Shown here: positions 43,495 through 50,545 of the stretch, in pieces | Layout: each line of letters begins with the position of its first letter | How positions within the stretch are numbered: the stretch's first letter is position 1 | Source of the DNA: a phage | Length of the DNA stretch: 64,000 bases | Sequence record: PX969468.1 | Direction: 5' to 3' (one strand) | Program-made: the position numbers and the translations under genes | Notes under the pieces: generated by a model | Seen by the model: only the letters and a program-made list of their open reading frames with translations | The model's database searches: none | What the model was told of the DNA's origin: nothing

Positions 43495-44700
43495 ATGATT
43501 TTCATCTACGAACATTTCAAAACTCGTAAAGAAGCACGCGACCGCCGTGCAGAACTTGAGAAGAAAGGTTTCACATGTGCCATTGAGAAAGGTGACACAA
43601 CCTGGACACTGGCAGTGGGTGCCCCAGAATTGTTCGATCCTGACCGTGACAGCGTCTGCTACACCCGTGAGGATTTTGAAACCCGTGAAGAGGCCCGTCT
43701 ATTTCGATATGGGCTGGAAGATAACGGTAAGTACGCCATGATCTTAGACTTAGGCGAAGGTTCCGTTAAACGTTGGGGCGTGATATACCCACTGTGTGTT
43801 GTTCACGGTGTGGGGTTTACTGGGGTAGCAATCAAGTCAGAAGAACCTTTAGTAGAAGTCAAAGATCCGGTGCTGGAAGTGGTGAGCAGTGTGTCTCAGC
43901 AACAGACTCGAAGCATCGAGCCTTTGGTAGTTATTTGCGGGGAACTCCTCCAGATCACCTGCAACGAAGGAATTTTTGAAATTCGCCGCAGCGAAAGTGA
44001 GGAAGTTTACCAGAAAGTCTTCGACCATATCTCTGTTCAGGAATATGATGAGGCAATTGGTGAAATCCTTGTCTGGCTGGAACGCAAGAATGAGTTCACC
44101 ACACTTGCAGACAACCTGATCATGAAAGATGGTAAGCTCTACTACTACGGTGTAGAGATGCGATCCACCATTGCAAAGAAAATTGAGAAAGATTATGCAG
44201 ACGGAACGCTGGATGACCGCTATGTGAAATTCCTCGTTCGCCTGCTACGCAATCCTTCTGCAAAATCTGTAAACATGCTCTACGATTTTATGCAGGCCAA
44301 TGATATTCAGATTGCAGAAGATGGTCGAATCATTTGCTACAAAGGGGTTCAGTTTAACGGCAGCAAGTGGGTGGATTGTCACAGTGGTAAAGTTCCACAA
44401 TACCAGGGTGCTTTTGTATCCATGCCTCGTAACTTTGTAGAGGATGATCCGGAAGCTGCGTGCTCCTATGGCTTACACTGCGCCAGCAAAGAGTATGCAA
44501 AGAGCTACGGCACTGTAATGACTGTTATGGTTGATCCTGCAGATGTGGTTAGTGTGCCATACCAACACAATAGCGCTAAGTGCCGTGCATGCCGCTATGA
44601 GATTGTGGTAGCTCCGGAAGCACGCAAAGATGGAGACCCTATTGAATATGTAGTTGATCGTGACGGTAACACTATCGACATTCTTTACGAGGAGGCGTAA
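43495..44700 (+). CDS. rIIB: rIIB-like protein
   Basis: C-terminal half aligns with T4 rIIB as recalled (LYDFMQANDIQIAEDG; DCHSG; SMPRNFVEDD; GLHCASKEYAKSYG; DVVSVPYQHNSAKCRACRYEIV). Confidence 0.85.
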   Translation: MIFIYEHFKTRKEARDRRAELEKKGFTCAIEKGDTTWTLAVGAPELFDPDRDSVCYTREDFETREEARLFRYGLEDNGKYAMILDLGEGSVKRWGVIYPLCVVHGVGFTGVAIKSEEPLVEVKDPVLEVVSSVSQQQTRSIEPLVVICGELLQITCNEGIFEIRRSESEEVYQKVFDHISVQEYDEAIGEILVWLERKNEFTTLADNLIMKDGKLYYYGVEMRSTIAKKIEKDYADGTLDDRYVKFLVRLLRNPSAKSVNMLYDFMQANDIQIAEDGRIICYKGVQFNGSKWVDCHSGKVPQYQGAFVSMPRNFVEDDPEAACSYGLHCASKEYAKSYGTVMTVMVDPADVVSVPYQHNSAKCRACRYEIVVAPEARKDGDPIEYVVDRDGNTIDILYEEA

Positions 44701-46070
44701 TGGAAAAAGGGCAGTATGATGTAGGCACAGATGCTGCCCTCGTTGCAATCATGAGCGGTGAGAATGTCTTCGTTTCAGGACCCGCAGGTTGTGGGAAGAC
44801 GTACCTCATCAACATGATCCAGTCAATGTATGGAGACTCTTGCATAACGGTTGCCCCGACAGGGGTAGCCGCTTTAAACGTTAATGGAGCAACAGCACAC
44901 CGAACCTTCGATCTTGCAGCAGGTGTGAGCATGGAGTCAGACTGGACCGCAATAAGGGAAAAAACAGCAAAGCCTTTGAAAAGCAAGGCATTTACCATCC
45001 TAATTATCGATGAAATCTCTATGATCCGTGCTGATAAGTTTATAGAGATGGATAGGAAACTCCGCTTCCTTCGAAAAAATGACAAACCTTTCGGGGGCAT
45101 ACAGGTCATATTGTTTGGCGATTTTTACCAGGCACCTCCTGTTGTCTCTTCTATGGAGAAGGAAGCCTACTTCAACTTCTACCATACGGACCTATGTTGC
45201 TATACCGAATCTTGGAAAGAGCTTGACCTCCACAACATAGCCCTAATAGATCAGTTCCGACAGGAGTCTATTCGATTCGCCACAATGCTCAACTGTGTTC
45301 GTGAGGGTCGTCGCATAAAAGAGGTTGTAGCAGAGCTTAATGCTCGCTGTTACAAAGGTGGTGTACCAACAGACGCTCTCACAATTTGCGCCACCAACAA
45401 ACAAGCAGAGGAAGTGAACAGAAGGTTCTATGATGCCATCAACGCCCCAGAGAAGGTATACACTGGTGAAATGAAGGGTAAGTTTCCCTCCACCTTGCCA
45501 GTTGAGCAGGAGATGAAGTTGAAAATTGGCATGAAAGTTATGATAACCGCCAACGATGTTGACCCGACGCACAAAGTACCTTATTATGTTAACGGAACAC
45601 GTGCCACGATTGTTAAATTTAAGAACAAGGCAGTGGTGGTAGAGCTTGAAGATGGAACACAGGTTGACATAGAGCAGAGGTTGTGGGAGAATAACGAGTA
45701 TAAGCCATCTCAAAGATACAACATTGCAGAAAGGAAGATGGAGAAGTTTATAGAGAGGGTAGTGATTGGATCATACAAGCAACTTCCTCTGAAATCTGGG
45801 TATGCCGTAACATCTCATAAAAGTCAAGGACTTACGCTAGATTGTTACAACCTGGACCTTGGAAAGAACGGAGCTTTCTCTCCTGGGATGACGTATGTTG
45901 CTTTGAGTCGAGTTAAGACAATACAAGGAATAAACTTGTTGCGTCCACTAAGAGAAGTTGACATTATTGTTGACCCGCGAGTCGTAGAGTTTTACAATAC
46001 AACATTCCCTGACTTAGACAAAATTGTCAGGAAAGATTTTGAAACCAGAGCAGAAGAGGGGGACGTATGA
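44700..46070 (+). CDS. dda: SF1B DNA helicase, Dda/PIF1/RecD-like
   Basis: Walker A GPAGCGKT; IIDEISMI; ILFGDFYQAPPV; C-terminal VTSHKSQGLTLD and TYVALSRVK. Confidence 0.8.
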   Translation: MEKGQYDVGTDAALVAIMSGENVFVSGPAGCGKTYLINMIQSMYGDSCITVAPTGVAALNVNGATAHRTFDLAAGVSMESDWTAIREKTAKPLKSKAFTILIIDEISMIRADKFIEMDRKLRFLRKNDKPFGGIQVILFGDFYQAPPVVSSMEKEAYFNFYHTDLCCYTESWKELDLHNIALIDQFRQESIRFATMLNCVREGRRIKEVVAELNARCYKGGVPTDALTICATNKQAEEVNRRFYDAINAPEKVYTGEMKGKFPSTLPVEQEMKLKIGMKVMITANDVDPTHKVPYYVNGTRATIVKFKNKAVVVELEDGTQVDIEQRLWENNEYKPSQRYNIAERKMEKFIERVVIGSYKQLPLKSGYAVTSHKSQGLTLDCYNLDLGKNGAFSPGMTYVALSRVKTIQGINLLRPLREVDIIVDPRVVEFYNTTFPDLDKIVRKDFETRAEEGDV

Positions 46071-46408
46071 GTTTGTGGAGAAATATAGTTAACTACGTGT
46101 GTGGCAATCCAACTCCTGAAGAGAAGGATGTTGTGATTCACGATTTTACTAAAAGATCTCGTGAAAAAGACCTACTGCTAACAAAGGTGACTGATAAAGA
46201 TCCTGCAGTAGGGGACTGGGCAGGTTTTGCGTTTACATCGGACAAATACACCTTTAACAAAGGTGACTATCTTGTTGTAGATTTTAACGAAGACATTGAT
46301 GGTGCTGAACCCTACTATCAGACCCTTATTATTGCAGGGTGCGTTGATCTCTCTGCAGGCATGCACAGTTTGATTCTTTTTGAGCTTGACTCTGAAGACC
46401 TTCAGTAG
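46067..46408 (+). CDS. hypothetical protein
   Basis: 113-aa ORF, ATGA overlap. Confidence 0.35.
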   Translation: MSLWRNIVNYVCGNPTPEEKDVVIHDFTKRSREKDLLLTKVTDKDPAVGDWAGFAFTSDKYTFNKGDYLVVDFNEDIDGAEPYYQTLIIAGCVDLSAGMHSLILFELDSEDLQ

Positions 46409-46468
46409 TAAGATGTTAGTCTAAAGGGGAGGCACTCCTCCCCACAAAAACTAAGGAAGCACTAAACG

Positions 46469-46771
46469 ATGAAACGTTATAAACCATACACTTTTGAAAT
46501 CGATTTCGAACTTGACGATATGTTTACTGTGGAAGCTCAAGCAGTTGTCCAGTTGCCAGACTCGGAGTGCCGTGACTCTGATGTTGACTATTACGGATTT
46601 AGACAAATTACCGATGTGCGTGTTTACCACAACGGTGAAGAGGTGGACTTCCACCAACTGCCAAACGATATGCGCTACTCAATTTACAAACGTGCAGCCC
46701 GTGAACTAGAGTCCTATCTGGATGCAGCGACGACAGCAGCTGCATTTGCTGAAGAAGTTGGAGGTTTCTGA
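46469..46771 (+). CDS. hypothetical protein
   Basis: 100-aa ORF. Confidence 0.35.
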   Translation: MKRYKPYTFEIDFELDDMFTVEAQAVVQLPDSECRDSDVDYYGFRQITDVRVYHNGEEVDFHQLPNDMRYSIYKRAARELESYLDAATTAAAFAEEVGGF

Positions 46772-47166
46772 TGATTACAGGTGTGAAGATTATCCAATAC
46801 CACTTAACCAAATTGGAAGATGCTGAAAAAGAGCTTGCAGAAGTTCTGAATAGTGGATATACTTTGCTATCATGCGCCTGCTCAGATACCTACGCTGTGT
46901 GGACACTTACCCGGAAGGAAGAGCCTGCATGGGTCTTGGTGCCAAACCCTAAGATTATTAGTGAGGTGGATGACTACCCTCAGGACGGCCTGCCAGAAGA
47001 CTGGGAAGTATGGGAAGGTGGTGAAAACCCTGCACCAGGTAAGTGGGTAAAATATAAACTACGTAGTGGTGCACAGTACGCTGACTACTCTGATAACCTA
47101 GACTGGAGTCATTCTTCACTAGGATCGTCTGCAAGTTCATATGATATCGTTGCTTTTCAGGAATAA
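46771..47166 (+). CDS. hypothetical protein
   Basis: 131-aa ORF. Confidence 0.35.
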   Translation: MITGVKIIQYHLTKLEDAEKELAEVLNSGYTLLSCACSDTYAVWTLTRKEEPAWVLVPNPKIISEVDDYPQDGLPEDWEVWEGGENPAPGKWVKYKLRSGAQYADYSDNLDWSHSSLGSSASSYDIVAFQE

Positions 47167-47178
47167 GGAGAAGGTAGT

Positions 47179-47661
47179 ATGTCAGATTTTATGTGGAAAG
47201 TAGGTTATGCCTCTCCTGAAATGTGCGAGGCTTGCTTTGTAAAAATAGGCCGCGAGGATATTGACAAAGTGATCTTTAAGTTTCGTGATGTATCTGTGAT
47301 CGGCAACCGAGTGCTTAAGCACTTAAAGAATCTGAAGCTCACCAAAAAGAAGTTCTTCGGACTTTTCGAAGAGAAAGTTGATGCTTGGACCCATTGCATT
47401 CAGGAAGCTAAATCTCACTACAGTGCTATCGTTACCCCAGAACGGGTAGCCAAGATGGAAGGATTCATCAACAGCACAGAGTTTGAGTGCCTAAAGGCTG
47501 CCCTTAATAGTTATCCAAAGTGCCTCAAACACCTTGACAAGTATGTAGAAAAGGATGGGGAAATGTATCTCACCCTGGATGCATACTATGAGATGCAAGA
47601 AATTTTAAATTTAGATTTGACATTGGTATCCACCGAGTATACAATAGGTATCCGGGTTTAA
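47179..47661 (+). CDS. hypothetical protein
   Basis: 160-aa ORF with RBS (aaggagaagg). Confidence 0.4.
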   Translation: MSDFMWKVGYASPEMCEACFVKIGREDIDKVIFKFRDVSVIGNRVLKHLKNLKLTKKKFFGLFEEKVDAWTHCIQEAKSHYSAIVTPERVAKMEGFINSTEFECLKAALNSYPKCLKHLDKYVEKDGEMYLTLDAYYEMQEILNLDLTLVSTEYTIGIRV

Positions 47662-47667
47662 CACTAG

Positions 47668-47695
47668 GCCCTGCCCGAAAGGGTGGGGCTTTTTG
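47668..47695 (+). terminator. rho-independent terminator (GAAA-loop hairpin), duplicated at 58665
   Basis: gccctgccc-gaaa-gggtggggc then tttttg. Confidence 0.6.
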
Positions 47696-47712
47696 CATTA
47701 GGAGACAGCAAA

Positions 47713-48477
47713 TTGAAATTTATCTATAAAGAACACTACCACAAAGGTGTTGTGTGGAGTCTATTTGACGGATCTGGCGGTGCAGTCATTGACTGGGCAA
47801 AAGCTGGATATCTGTGCCTGTGCTTTAACGCAGAAGGTGCTGACCACGGCAGTTATGCAGAGGTGATCACCGATCATCCAAATATTCACTATGTAGATTA
47901 TTGGATTGATCCATGGTTCCCTCAGGAAACTTTCTGCATGTACCCAGCTCCGGACTTTGTTCTTGCATTTCCTCCGTGCACGCATTTAGCGGTATCAGGT
48001 GCTGCACATTTTAAGAAAAAGCTGGCTAAGGATCCTTTGATCCAAATTAATGCTGTAAAGGATGCTCGGGTTGCGGAAGAGCTGGGAGAGATTTACGATT
48101 GCCCGTGGCATGTAGAGAATCCTGTTGGTGTTATGTCCACACTGTGGCGCAAACCTGATTACCGTTTTCATCCTTCTGACTATGGCGGGTATTTACCGGA
48201 GGATGATGTAAACCCCTGGTTTCCTGAATTTATAGCTCCACGTGATGCCTATCCAAAAATAACTTGCGGCTGGATAGGTAATGGATTTATAATCCCGGCC
48301 ACAAAACCTGTCCCGCAAATAGTTGACGCGGTTAGCGGGTATTCCATGCAACACGCCAAGCTGGGTGGAAAGAGTGCAAGAACGAAGATGATCCGAAGCC
48401 TCACACCACGTGGCTGGGCAAAAGCCGTATTCTTAGCAAACGAGCCTGTAGTAAGGAGCAGAATTAATGGGAAGTAA
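47713..48477 (+). CDS. DNA (cytosine-5)-methyltransferase-like protein
   Basis: motif I-like SLFDGSGG, motif IV-like FPPCTHLAVSG, motif VI-like HVENPVG; ORF track start 47683 lies inside the terminator hairpin, so TTG at 47713 after AGGAG is used (uncertain). Confidence 0.4.
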   Translation: MKFIYKEHYHKGVVWSLFDGSGGAVIDWAKAGYLCLCFNAEGADHGSYAEVITDHPNIHYVDYWIDPWFPQETFCMYPAPDFVLAFPPCTHLAVSGAAHFKKKLAKDPLIQINAVKDARVAEELGEIYDCPWHVENPVGVMSTLWRKPDYRFHPSDYGGYLPEDDVNPWFPEFIAPRDAYPKITCGWIGNGFIIPATKPVPQIVDAVSGYSMQHAKLGGKSARTKMIRSLTPRGWAKAVFLANEPVVRSRINGK

Positions 48478-50545
48478 ATTTATGGCATCTGCATACAACC
48501 GTTTCGGTGAGCCAAACCCGAAAGCAACTAAGTATAAAAGTGGGGGAAGTGTGAAACGAGACTATCGTGATGAAAAAGAAGTTGAAACTGTAGAGACTGT
48601 TTTAGAAAATACTAAAATTGTCCCTGTCCCACAACAAAATATCGGTCTGATGGCTGCACAATATTTTGGTGTGCGATCAGCATTGTCCCAAGAAGACGGT
48701 GTGACAGTCACTGCAACATATTTCCCATATTACGACCGCTACGGAAATCTGTCCGGTTTCAAAAAGCGTGACTGGACGATTCCTAAAGAGCAAAGGGGCC
48801 ATTTCTCCGTTGTTGGCATCGTAAAGGCCAACTCCCAGATGTTTGGTCAAAAGCTGTGTGCATCTTCCAACAACCGTAAGCAGATTAACGTTTGTGAGGG
48901 AGAAGGTGATGTTATTGCAGCATGGCAGGCTGCATATCAGATACAAGTAAAAGGGATTCTCACCAACGCTAAAGCCCCGGCAAAGGTGAAGCAGTGGGCT
49001 AAAGAGGTCCAGGACGGGATCGACGCAGTTATCAACGGTGGTGATCTGGCAGGAAAACCCTGCCTGCCTTTTGTTGGAATTAACTGTGGATGTGCAAACG
49101 CAGTAGATACTTTTGCAAACAATGAGAAGTTTATCCGTAGCTATGGAACAGTTGTGCTGGCAATGGATAACGATGCAGCTAACGAGGTAGAGAAGCAAAA
49201 ACACGTCATTAAAGGTGTTGAGGCCACGCACAATATCGCAGCATTTTTGATGGCTGATAACGTTTACCACGTAGAATACCCTGGTGAAGTAAATGACCCT
49301 GACGGTGTAAAAGATATCCGAGACATGCTGAAGGCTAAAAAGCTGGAAGATATTGTCAACATGTTCCGGCACCCTGTTAAATATGTGCCTGATGCTGTGT
49401 CGGATTTAGAAGACTTCTCTATCGAATCTTTGCGGAAAAAGACTTCCAACGGGGTAGATATCAGCGCAGAGTTCCCAAAACTGCAAAAAATGCTAAAAGG
49501 CTTGCACAAAGGGACACTTGTAATGCTTACAGGTCCATCAGGAGGCGGTAAAACAACTGTAGCTAAAAAACTGGAACACTGTATTGCAAGATACCTAATG
49601 GACCCGACATGCCAGAAGGCTGATGACTACGAAGAGGATGATCGTCTATGTATGATCCATCTTGAGGAGGACCCAGAGGAAGCAATTAACTCCTTGTATG
49701 CAAACCAGTTAGGGTTCGATGTTAAAGAGTTTGTTGAAGATCCTAGCCAGTTTTTAACTGATCAAGAACACGCAGAGATTCACCAATCATGGGCAAAAGC
49801 TGGAAAAATCAAAGTGTTCAAACATTTCGGGTCTATTCCGGTGGACGAGTTGATTACCAAGCTTAAGCAAATGGTTTGCCTGTACCATTGTCGTTATATT
49901 GTACTGGATCACCTGTCCATGGTAATTTCAGGGCTTAATGTTAAGGATGAGCGAAAAGAACTGGACATAGCTATGACCCAACTGGCTGCGTTTTGTAAGC
50001 AGTTTAATGTGTTTATCTTGGTGATCGCTCACCTCAAACGTACAGAGATTGTGCCTCCTAAAGACAAGGATGGTAACCCGTTACCTTTCTGGTATCCTGT
50101 GCGAAAAGAGAATTTGCGAGGATCGGCTGGGCTTGAACAGTTGAGTTGGGTAGTTATAGGTGTCGAGGCCGAAGAAATGGTGGATCGTTCTCGTGGACGT
50201 GTCCGTCTGGTAGGTCTTAAAAACCGTCCAGCAAAAACTTTAGGTATTGCTGACACTTTGGTTATGGACCCGCATACAGGTAAGTTCCATGATGCCAGTA
50301 ATTGGTACTGGGACAAAGAAATGCAAATGTTTACAGATGGAGAAGGTGGGGAGGTTGTTTGGAGACCTCAGGCTATGTTTGAGGATCAGGAGCATGCAGT
50401 TGTAGAAACACCTATGGGCAAGGTTGTGGCTGATAAGGTTGTAACTCCTACTGTTAAGCCTGTTGACACGCAGGAAGACCTCCAGTACGATGATCCGTCC
50501 TCTGACCCTGTTCCTGGTTTTGAAGACGATGAAACACCTTTTTAA
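48467..50545 (+). CDS. DNA primase-helicase (T7 gp4-like; Toprim plus DnaB-family helicase)
   Basis: Toprim-like CEGEGDVIAAWQ and VLAMDNDAANE; helicase Walker A LTGPSGGGKTT, Walker B YIVLDHLS, AHLKR. Confidence 0.75.
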   Translation: MGSKFMASAYNRFGEPNPKATKYKSGGSVKRDYRDEKEVETVETVLENTKIVPVPQQNIGLMAAQYFGVRSALSQEDGVTVTATYFPYYDRYGNLSGFKKRDWTIPKEQRGHFSVVGIVKANSQMFGQKLCASSNNRKQINVCEGEGDVIAAWQAAYQIQVKGILTNAKAPAKVKQWAKEVQDGIDAVINGGDLAGKPCLPFVGINCGCANAVDTFANNEKFIRSYGTVVLAMDNDAANEVEKQKHVIKGVEATHNIAAFLMADNVYHVEYPGEVNDPDGVKDIRDMLKAKKLEDIVNMFRHPVKYVPDAVSDLEDFSIESLRKKTSNGVDISAEFPKLQKMLKGLHKGTLVMLTGPSGGGKTTVAKKLEHCIARYLMDPTCQKADDYEEDDRLCMIHLEEDPEEAINSLYANQLGFDVKEFVEDPSQFLTDQEHAEIHQSWAKAGKIKVFKHFGSIPVDELITKLKQMVCLYHCRYIVLDHLSMVISGLNVKDERKELDIAMTQLAAFCKQFNVFILVIAHLKRTEIVPPKDKDGNPLPFWYPVRKENLRGSAGLEQLSWVVIGVEAEEMVDRSRGRVRLVGLKNRPAKTLGIADTLVMDPHTGKFHDASNWYWDKEMQMFTDGEGGEVVWRPQAMFEDQEHAVVETPMGKVVADKVVTPTVKPVDTQEDLQYDDPSSDPVPGFEDDETPF

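Follow-up and report, generated by a model that had tools for sequence, protein, structure and literature searches.

The window analysed here, 64,000 nucleotides of phage DNA (sequence record PX969468.1), carries on its plus strand a gene (47713..48477, TTG start, stop codon included) that very probably encodes a functional orphan DNA cytosine-C5 methyltransferase, dependent on S-adenosylmethionine (SAM), of the phage "mini" family (PHROG 757, ~210–260 aa). In kind the enzyme is already known, as a member of a widespread, annotated family of very small phage C5-methyltransferases with one characterised member type, and it is not new. The product is 254 aa long and contains FDGSGG at residues 18–23 (47764..47781), PPC at 87–89 (47971..47979) and ENP at 135–137 (48115..48123), with the spacing of motifs I, IV and VI in cytosine-C5 methyltransferases. 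The first-pass annotation, made from the letters alone, had reported these motifs in a protein of about 255 aa and called it C5-methyltransferase-like. Both statements stand, the second now supported by assignment to PHROG 757, a profile match to DNMT3A, the invariance of PPC and ENP, and an active homologue type with 53% identity.

Conservation was examined in an alignment of 61 relatives, which form two deep clades (enterobacterial phages and actinophages) and extend down to ~33% identity. P87, P88 and C89 as well as E135, N136 and P137 are invariant, as are K103, Q111, Y180, K182, T184, W187, R228, S229 and P232, and all 24 invariant family columns are present in the window protein. It has the compact single-domain length of the family (~210–260 aa) together with PPC, ENP, Y-x-K-x-T-x-x-W and R-S-x-x-P. 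At the level of sequence, it is confirmed that the motif matches are not due to chance. Motif IV, which aligns to the PC of M.HaeIII, DNMT3A and Dcm, supplies the predicted catalytic nucleophile, C89. Motif VI, the counterpart of the canonical ENV, lies at the end of predicted strand beta5 (residues 132–136 in the AlphaFold2 (AF2) model) and supplies E135, the predicted contact to N3/N4 of the cytosine. These residues correspond to C82 and E128 of the K42/damhaus-type enzyme described below. FDGSGG fits the FxGxG pattern of motif I, follows strand beta1 (AF2 13–17) as the presumed SAM-binding loop, and aligns to SLFSGAGG of M.HaeIII and SLFDGIATG of DNMT3A. This motif is looser than the other two: conservation of G22 is ~90%, and the motif reads FDGSEI or FNGSDI in close relatives. 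The window protein deviates at 4 of the 56 columns conserved at 85% or more; three of the deviations are conservative, and the remaining one, Ile183, replaces a Lys shared by 92% of the family. The gene differs from its FV3 orthologue at 60 nucleotides, 54 of them at third codon positions, with four amino-acid changes, giving a ratio of nonsynonymous to synonymous substitution rates (dN/dS) of 0.015. The open reading frame (ORF) is a real, strongly conserved gene.

Profile searches place the protein in PHROG 757, "DNA methyltransferase" (hmmscan E 1.1e-86, residues 2–251 on profile positions 5–226 of 247). Database homologues number 3530. Separate counts of records with homologues are 1502 for phage records and 1007 for clusters at 50% identity; the best 150 clusters listed are mostly 150–300 aa long. 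The 99.6%-identical protein of the BASEL phage MaxBurger is annotated as a "Dcm-like C5 cytosine methyltransferase". Among canonical enzymes, only the mammalian DNMT3A/DNMT3B type (catalytic domains) gives a significant match to the family profile, and like the window enzyme it has a much reduced target recognition domain (TRD). The DNMT3A match has an E value of 3.8e-5 over motifs I–IV and includes the unusual SLFDG form of motif I (the DNMT3A sequence was checked against PDB 5yx2/6f57); the hhalign alignment beyond motif IV misplaces ENV and was not used. By these comparisons the catalytic core appears closest to DNMT3-type enzymes. Identity to DNMT3 is ~13–15%, and the catalytic domain of DNMT3A exceeds the window protein by ~30 residues. 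DNMT3 enzymes keep a TRD loop and motif IX and act as a dimer or tetramer on CpG, whereas the window enzyme is without a separate TRD.

The mini methyltransferase fold is also found inside very large proteins of uncultured phages (BFVD A0A6J5SE15_1, 1397 aa; A0A6J5NPY6_2, 1126 aa), with 23–26% identity over ~250 columns. One of these fusions is annotated with a helicase/UvrB N-terminal domain, which parallels the frequent place of the gene beside helicase genes. At the DNA level, homologues with 67–72% identity over the conserved core are found in Krischvirus RB49 (OZ035808), PQ351812, MN655998 and others that are annotated as Krischvirus or have similar genome sizes of 162–169 kb, as well as in the Drexlerviridae phage Tls.

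The experimental anchor for the family comes from the phage KarlJaspers. The window protein is 53% identical over 235 residues (3e-85) to the 236-aa damhaus protein, which has C82, E128, K175 and K176 and shares 96.6% identity with the KarlJaspers enzyme annotated as a "Dcm-like C5 cytosine methyltransferase" (located by tblastn). All retron Ec86 escapers of KarlJaspers strain K42 were without the 711-bp dcm gene (Wang et al., bioRxiv 10.1101/2023.08.16.553469; Cell Rep 2024;43:114857), and expression of K42 dcm was toxic only with the retron present (Wang et al., Cell Rep 2024;43:114857). By LC-MS (liquid chromatography coupled to mass spectrometry), wild-type K42 Dcm produced high 5-methylcytosine (5mC) in the Ec86 multicopy single-stranded DNA (msDNA) and the retron was triggered, while a C82A/E128A/K175A/K176A mutant gave no 5mC rise, no toxicity and no retron trigger; its E128 had been chosen by superposition on DNMT3A (Cell Rep 2024;43:114857). 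From the LC-MS result it follows that the PHROG 757 family holds at least one enzyme making 5mC in DNA in vivo. The four mutated residues correspond to C89, E135, K182 and I183 of the window protein. From its C5-methyltransferase fold, its conserved residues and the formation of 5mC by this 53%-identical homologue type, we infer that the window protein is likewise active. The two enzymes share family, length class, the PPC and ENP residues (C82 = C89, E128 = E135) and orphan status, and both genes are located in an early/replication region with a helicase nearby. They differ in that the window phage is a myovirus (Vequintavirus) while KarlJaspers/K42 is a siphovirus (Hanrivervirus, Drexlerviridae), and in that the window protein has a 9-residue N-terminal extension and Ile in place of K176. 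The loop after strand beta7 also differs (GYSMQHAKL here, DNPGWAKT in the K42/damhaus type), which leaves room for a different target sequence.

In the AF2 model all seven class I methyltransferase strands are present (residues 13–17, 34–38, 58–61, 82–85, 132–136, 150–152 and 184–189), and the predicted fold is that of a cytosine-C5 methyltransferase, the group to which this class I fold is most similar. Beyond the last strand, beta7, only ~65 residues follow, which the model folds into three helices without a sheet (the helices include 222–229 and 233–253). There is thus no separate small domain, and neither the canonical TRD nor motif IX is present. The pattern of the RSLTPRGWAKAV stretch is reminiscent of motif IX, but this stretch is the C-terminal helix. 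The first-pass annotation had cautioned that without a TRD the protein might be something else: the missing domain is borne out, but a homologue built in the same way shows activity. Two further elements may correspond to canonical motifs. The strand and turn Y180-P-K182-I-T184-C-G-W187-I-G-N-G (48250..48285; AF2 strand 184–189), in which Y180, K182, T184 and W187 are invariant, does not have the RxR of the motif VIII pattern QxRxR. Its invariant K182 and T184 lie on beta7, on either side of position 183, and the pattern Y-x-K-x-T-x-x-W-x-G-N appears to resemble RARYFWGN of DNMT3A (motif VIII). R228-S229-L-T-P232 (48394..48408), with R228, S229 and P232 invariant, lies at the junction of helices 222–229 and 233–253, before the long C-terminal helix, and is the probable equivalent of motif X, comparable to GRSWSVP of DNMT3A and GNS of M.HhaI. 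Sequence alignment beyond motif IV is unreliable, so that these motif VIII and motif X equivalences are drawn from pattern and topology. The least conserved part of the alignment is the segment after beta7, residues 196–221 (ATKPVPQIVDAVSGYSMQHAKLGGKS, 48298..48375), which contains the GYSMQHAKL loop and is most likely the element that reads the DNA sequence, substituting for a TRD. The second of two candidate DNA-reading segments is presumably the insert that joins strands 6 and 7 (residues 153–183); in the clade of actinophages it is shorter by 14 residues.

The missing TRD and the degenerate motif I of close relatives could instead point to an RNA (tRNA) cytosine-C5 methyltransferase of the DNMT2 kind, or to a dead, DNMT3L-like regulator. 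We consider this exceedingly improbable: the K42 homologue type methylates DNA in vivo, and the invariant catalytic Cys and Glu together with the dN/dS of 0.015 argue against a dead enzyme. A different chemistry on the same fold is suggested by CmoX of Synechococcus phage S-B43 (PDB 8yf3; PMC12783734), which like the window enzyme is phage-encoded, has PPC after a non-Gly residue and, possibly in common with it, an Arg in motif X. In this case a carboxymethyl group would be transferred from carboxy-SAM (Cx-SAM), the host CmoA supplying the cofactor, to produce 5-carboxymethylcytosine alone or together with 5mC. The selectivity of CmoX depends on an Arg replacing Asn304 of M.HhaI in motif X, plus an SPPC motif (PMC12783734); the PHROG 757 family has invariant FPPC, not SPPC, and invariant R228-S229, perhaps at the motif X position, and the K42 study measured 5mC only. 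However, in a cmoA+ host the DNA clearly gained 5mC from the K42 homologue. DNMT3A, an ordinary methyltransferase by established knowledge, has Arg (GRSWSVP) at its probable motif X as read from the pattern, so Arg there is not diagnostic of carboxymethyl transfer. CmoX is also larger (333 residues in the solved chain), recognises GC, depends on Cx-SAM and usually has cmoA and cmoY as gene neighbours (PMC12783734), whereas neither partner gene is present here: no CmoA homologue is found anywhere in the 64-kb window (tblastn E > 3), there is no ligase-like neighbour, and the PHROG 757 homologue type makes 5mC. We regard carboxymethyl transfer as very improbable.

Several results weigh against assignment as a functional DNA cytosine-C5 methyltransferase with a restriction-related role, or against parts of it. 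Pfam and NCBIfam return nothing for the window protein, and PF00145, the profile proposed as a check in the first-pass annotation, does not match it even at E 10. That check is passed only by some relatives and only over motifs I–IV: 7 of the 61 match PF00145 at E ≤0.01 (best 1.3e-6), and three that were examined individually score 24.7–28.5 bits, above the 22-bit gathering threshold. The sole weak Pfam match, SCO4226-like (E 0.11), was rejected as noise. Sequence searches of the PDB (phmmer and profile) yield a marginal match to M.HaeIII over motifs I–IV (E 0.11–1.2), and comparison of the family profile with E. coli Dcm does not join the two (hhalign E 0.34, probability 0.2%, 23 columns around motif IV). 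K176, one of the four residues mutated in K42, is not conserved here (I183). No activity data on any Vequintavirus enzyme were found in the literature searched, the CCWGG specificity of the K42 type is an assumption, and in the Drexlerviridae, according to the BASEL authors, restriction resistance is not tied in any simple way to the presence of methyltransferase genes.

The name given to these genes deserves particular caution. In database records the phage gene goes by "Dcm" or "Dcm-like", and the K42 paper took CCWGG from the name, its only test being to mutate the msDNA's CCTGG in a host that was dcm+ (Cell Rep 2024;43:114857). Because there is no significant similarity to Dcm, the name says nothing reliable on specificity. 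E. coli Dcm (472 aa, CCWGG), M.HhaI and M.HaeIII (PF00145) share the fold and motifs I, IV and VI with the window enzyme. Unlike Dcm and the type II enzymes, however, the window protein is about half the length of Dcm, is without the small domain carrying the TRD and motif IX, and falls below the PF00145 threshold. Although it escapes detection by Pfam, annotators can with good confidence label the gene as coding for a DNA cytosine-C5 methyltransferase, while "Dcm" overstates what can be said.

Composition of the window was compared with a maximal-order Markov model. There are 95 CCWGG sites, with an observed/expected (O/E) ratio of 0.63, the fourth lowest of 512 pentamer pairs, and the deamination products of CCWGG are not enriched (O/E 0.98). 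The depletion is moderate and, the deamination products not being in excess, was rejected as evidence of specificity. The most depleted tetranucleotides in the whole window are CTAG (O/E 0.55) and GTAC (O/E 0.57).

It is conceivable, if unlikely, that the enzyme is a minimal DNMT3-like C5 transferase without a TRD that does not copy the host Dcm, its target or product in vivo differing from C(5mC)WGG. Possible differences would be a shorter or degenerate site, or a preference for hairpins or replication forks; least likely is the use of carboxy-SAM via Arg228. This reading would explain why, in the K42 work, the msDNA was poorly methylated in a dcm+ host without the phage enzyme (Cell Rep 2024;43:114857), and why the retron is silent in such a host until the phage enzyme is made. 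Apart from this reading, the PHROG 757 family is to our knowledge among the shortest of the cytosine-C5 methyltransferases. How its members read a sequence without a recognition domain is a modest but testable question, on which no determination was found in the literature searched, and the enzyme could serve as a small tool.

The gene is located in a replication module in the order Pif1/Dda-like helicase (44700–46070), four small ORFs without known function, methyltransferase ORF, primase-helicase (48467–50545) and DNA polymerase. With 98.9% identity, the region 47000–49000 matches Escherichia phage Murica and numerous further phages of the rV5-like group (Vequintavirus); matching records number 117. 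No nuclease partner is found among the neighbours in the window (the four small proteins, the Pif1/Dda helicase and the primase-helicase), nor beside homologues in three other genomic contexts examined, which include lambdoid prophages, where the homologue is part of the nin region, flanked by Dam/DUF6378 and NinG/RusA, and actinophages, where the gene order is SSB, one gene, methyltransferase, one gene, DnaB. The methyltransferase is thus an orphan in the contexts examined, in agreement with the first-pass annotation, which saw no restriction-enzyme partner; the adjacent cognate endonuclease gene of a type II restriction-modification system is not present. The AAGGAG and ATG of the primase-helicase gene (48453..48469, plus strand) lie inside the 3′ end of the methyltransferase gene, the two genes overlapping by 11 nt, and the arrangement is identical in Murica and FV3. 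The position of this ribosome-binding site (RBS) and start suggests co-transcription and translational coupling. ORFs on the minus strand beneath the methyltransferase gene are all ≤74 aa, and an Rfam search of 46000–49500 gave no match.

Protection of replicating phage DNA against type II restriction, the anti-restriction role that the first-pass annotation had raised for an active enzyme, is plausible and would be the most likely role. In the proposed mechanism, the enzyme would probably be made during phage DNA replication, as suggested by the replication module, the promoter-like site upstream and the primase-helicase overlap. The DNA sequence would be read by the insert 153–183 and the variable loop 196–221, and the motif I loop (FDGSGG) would bind SAM, probably together with R228/S229 before the C-terminal helix. 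The target cytosine would be flipped out, with Cys89 of PPC attacking C6 while Glu135 of ENP holds N3/N4; the methyl group of SAM would then pass to C5 and the cysteine would be eliminated. New phage DNA may in this way be methylated faster than host enzymes can, masking sites from type II restriction enzymes of the host; the literature guess for the target is CCWGG, an EcoRII-type site. Carrying the gene probably alters host range and should protect the phage against some type II restriction enzymes. It should also make the phage vulnerable to retron Eco1, and perhaps to restriction that depends on methylation; a cost has been demonstrated for the K42 enzyme type, which methylates the msDNA of retron Eco1/Ec86 and so leads to abortive infection (Cell Rep 2024;43:114857). 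Nothing specific on the methylomes or restriction digests of rV5-like phages was found in the literature searched.

An active 5mC methyltransferase could have a main role other than protection from restriction, such as marking replicated phage DNA for the phage's own purposes (replication, packaging or gene timing) or countering another defence, in which case the link to helicases would be functional. The overlap with the primase-helicase gene is consistent with this, as are relatives that adjoin helicases in several unrelated phage groups, the fusion of the same fold to a helicase in uncultured phages, and the missing simple link between methyltransferase genes and restriction phenotype reported by the BASEL authors. 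However, phage orphan methyltransferases are commonly found in early and replication modules without any functional link, the lambdoid prophage homologues lie beside Dam, NinG and RusA and not beside a helicase, and some members of the subfamily do without the gene, which is therefore accessory. A main role of this kind seems to us distinctly unlikely, and protection against type II restriction remains the preferred reading.

The program-made ORF (47683–48477) begins at GTG 47683, which lies inside an intrinsic-terminator-like hairpin on the plus strand (47666..47691; 11-bp stem with seven GC pairs, GAAA loop, T-run) that is also a terminator in the Murica annotation. The first-pass annotation had rightly placed the ORF-track start in an upstream terminator, and GTG 47683 was rejected as spurious. 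Its further view that the start codon is ambiguous does not hold. A Shine-Dalgarno sequence, AGGAG (47700..47704, plus strand), annotated as an RBS in Murica, lies 8 nt upstream of TTG 47713; the terminator, RBS and TTG have the same sequence in Murica and FV3, and TTG 47713 is the annotated start in both. The N-terminal extension (MDFIYKD...) is kept in an 80%-identical relative. On this pattern the true start should be TTG 47713, where the span in the first-pass annotation begins, and is not really ambiguous.

A sigma-70-like promoter candidate, TTGACA-17-TACAAT with 11 of 12 matches, is found on the plus strand at 47617..47645, in the 3′ end of the upstream ORF. It lies ~20 nt before the strong terminator, an arrangement repeated in Murica and FV3, and a transcript starting there would open with the terminator hairpin. 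The site could be a real promoter, part of an attenuator or a chance match. Sigma70-like promoters have been reported in the helicase/methylase/polymerase region of a related Certrevirus (PMC7344957). The promoter-like site before the terminator, together with the overlap with the primase-helicase gene, makes expression alongside the replication genes likely.

A second methyltransferase gene distinguishes related phages from the window. Murica (gp070), FV3 (ORF215) and, according to the FV3 annotation, rV5 have a ~1.3-kb N6-adenine methyltransferase gene that is missing here. The difference is a clean indel of ~1334 nt, with the window site at 46408–46472 and the junction at ~46464–46472; a hairpin, GGGGAGGCACTCCTCCCC, lies within this site at 46426–46443. 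No trace of the adenine methyltransferase gene is found elsewhere in the 64-kb window by tblastn, and no ORF of at least 120 aa in the window contains an amino-methyltransferase motif (D/N/S)PP(Y/F/W); consequently, apart from the C5 enzyme the 64 kb contain no recognisable DNA methyltransferase. Next to the junction, a 100-aa ORF (46469–46771, plus strand) belongs to PHROG 4240 (unknown function) and has a weak match (E 8.5e-5) to the C-terminal part of PHROG 1573, "DNA methyltransferase". Its homologue directly follows the adenine methyltransferase gene in Murica and FV3.

Finally, sixteen GenBank records labelled "Campylobacter phage" (MG065659, MG065635, MG065654 and others; host Campylobacter jejuni) have 97–99% identity to this E. 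coli rV5-like sequence, and the labels look like mislabelling or contamination of those records.
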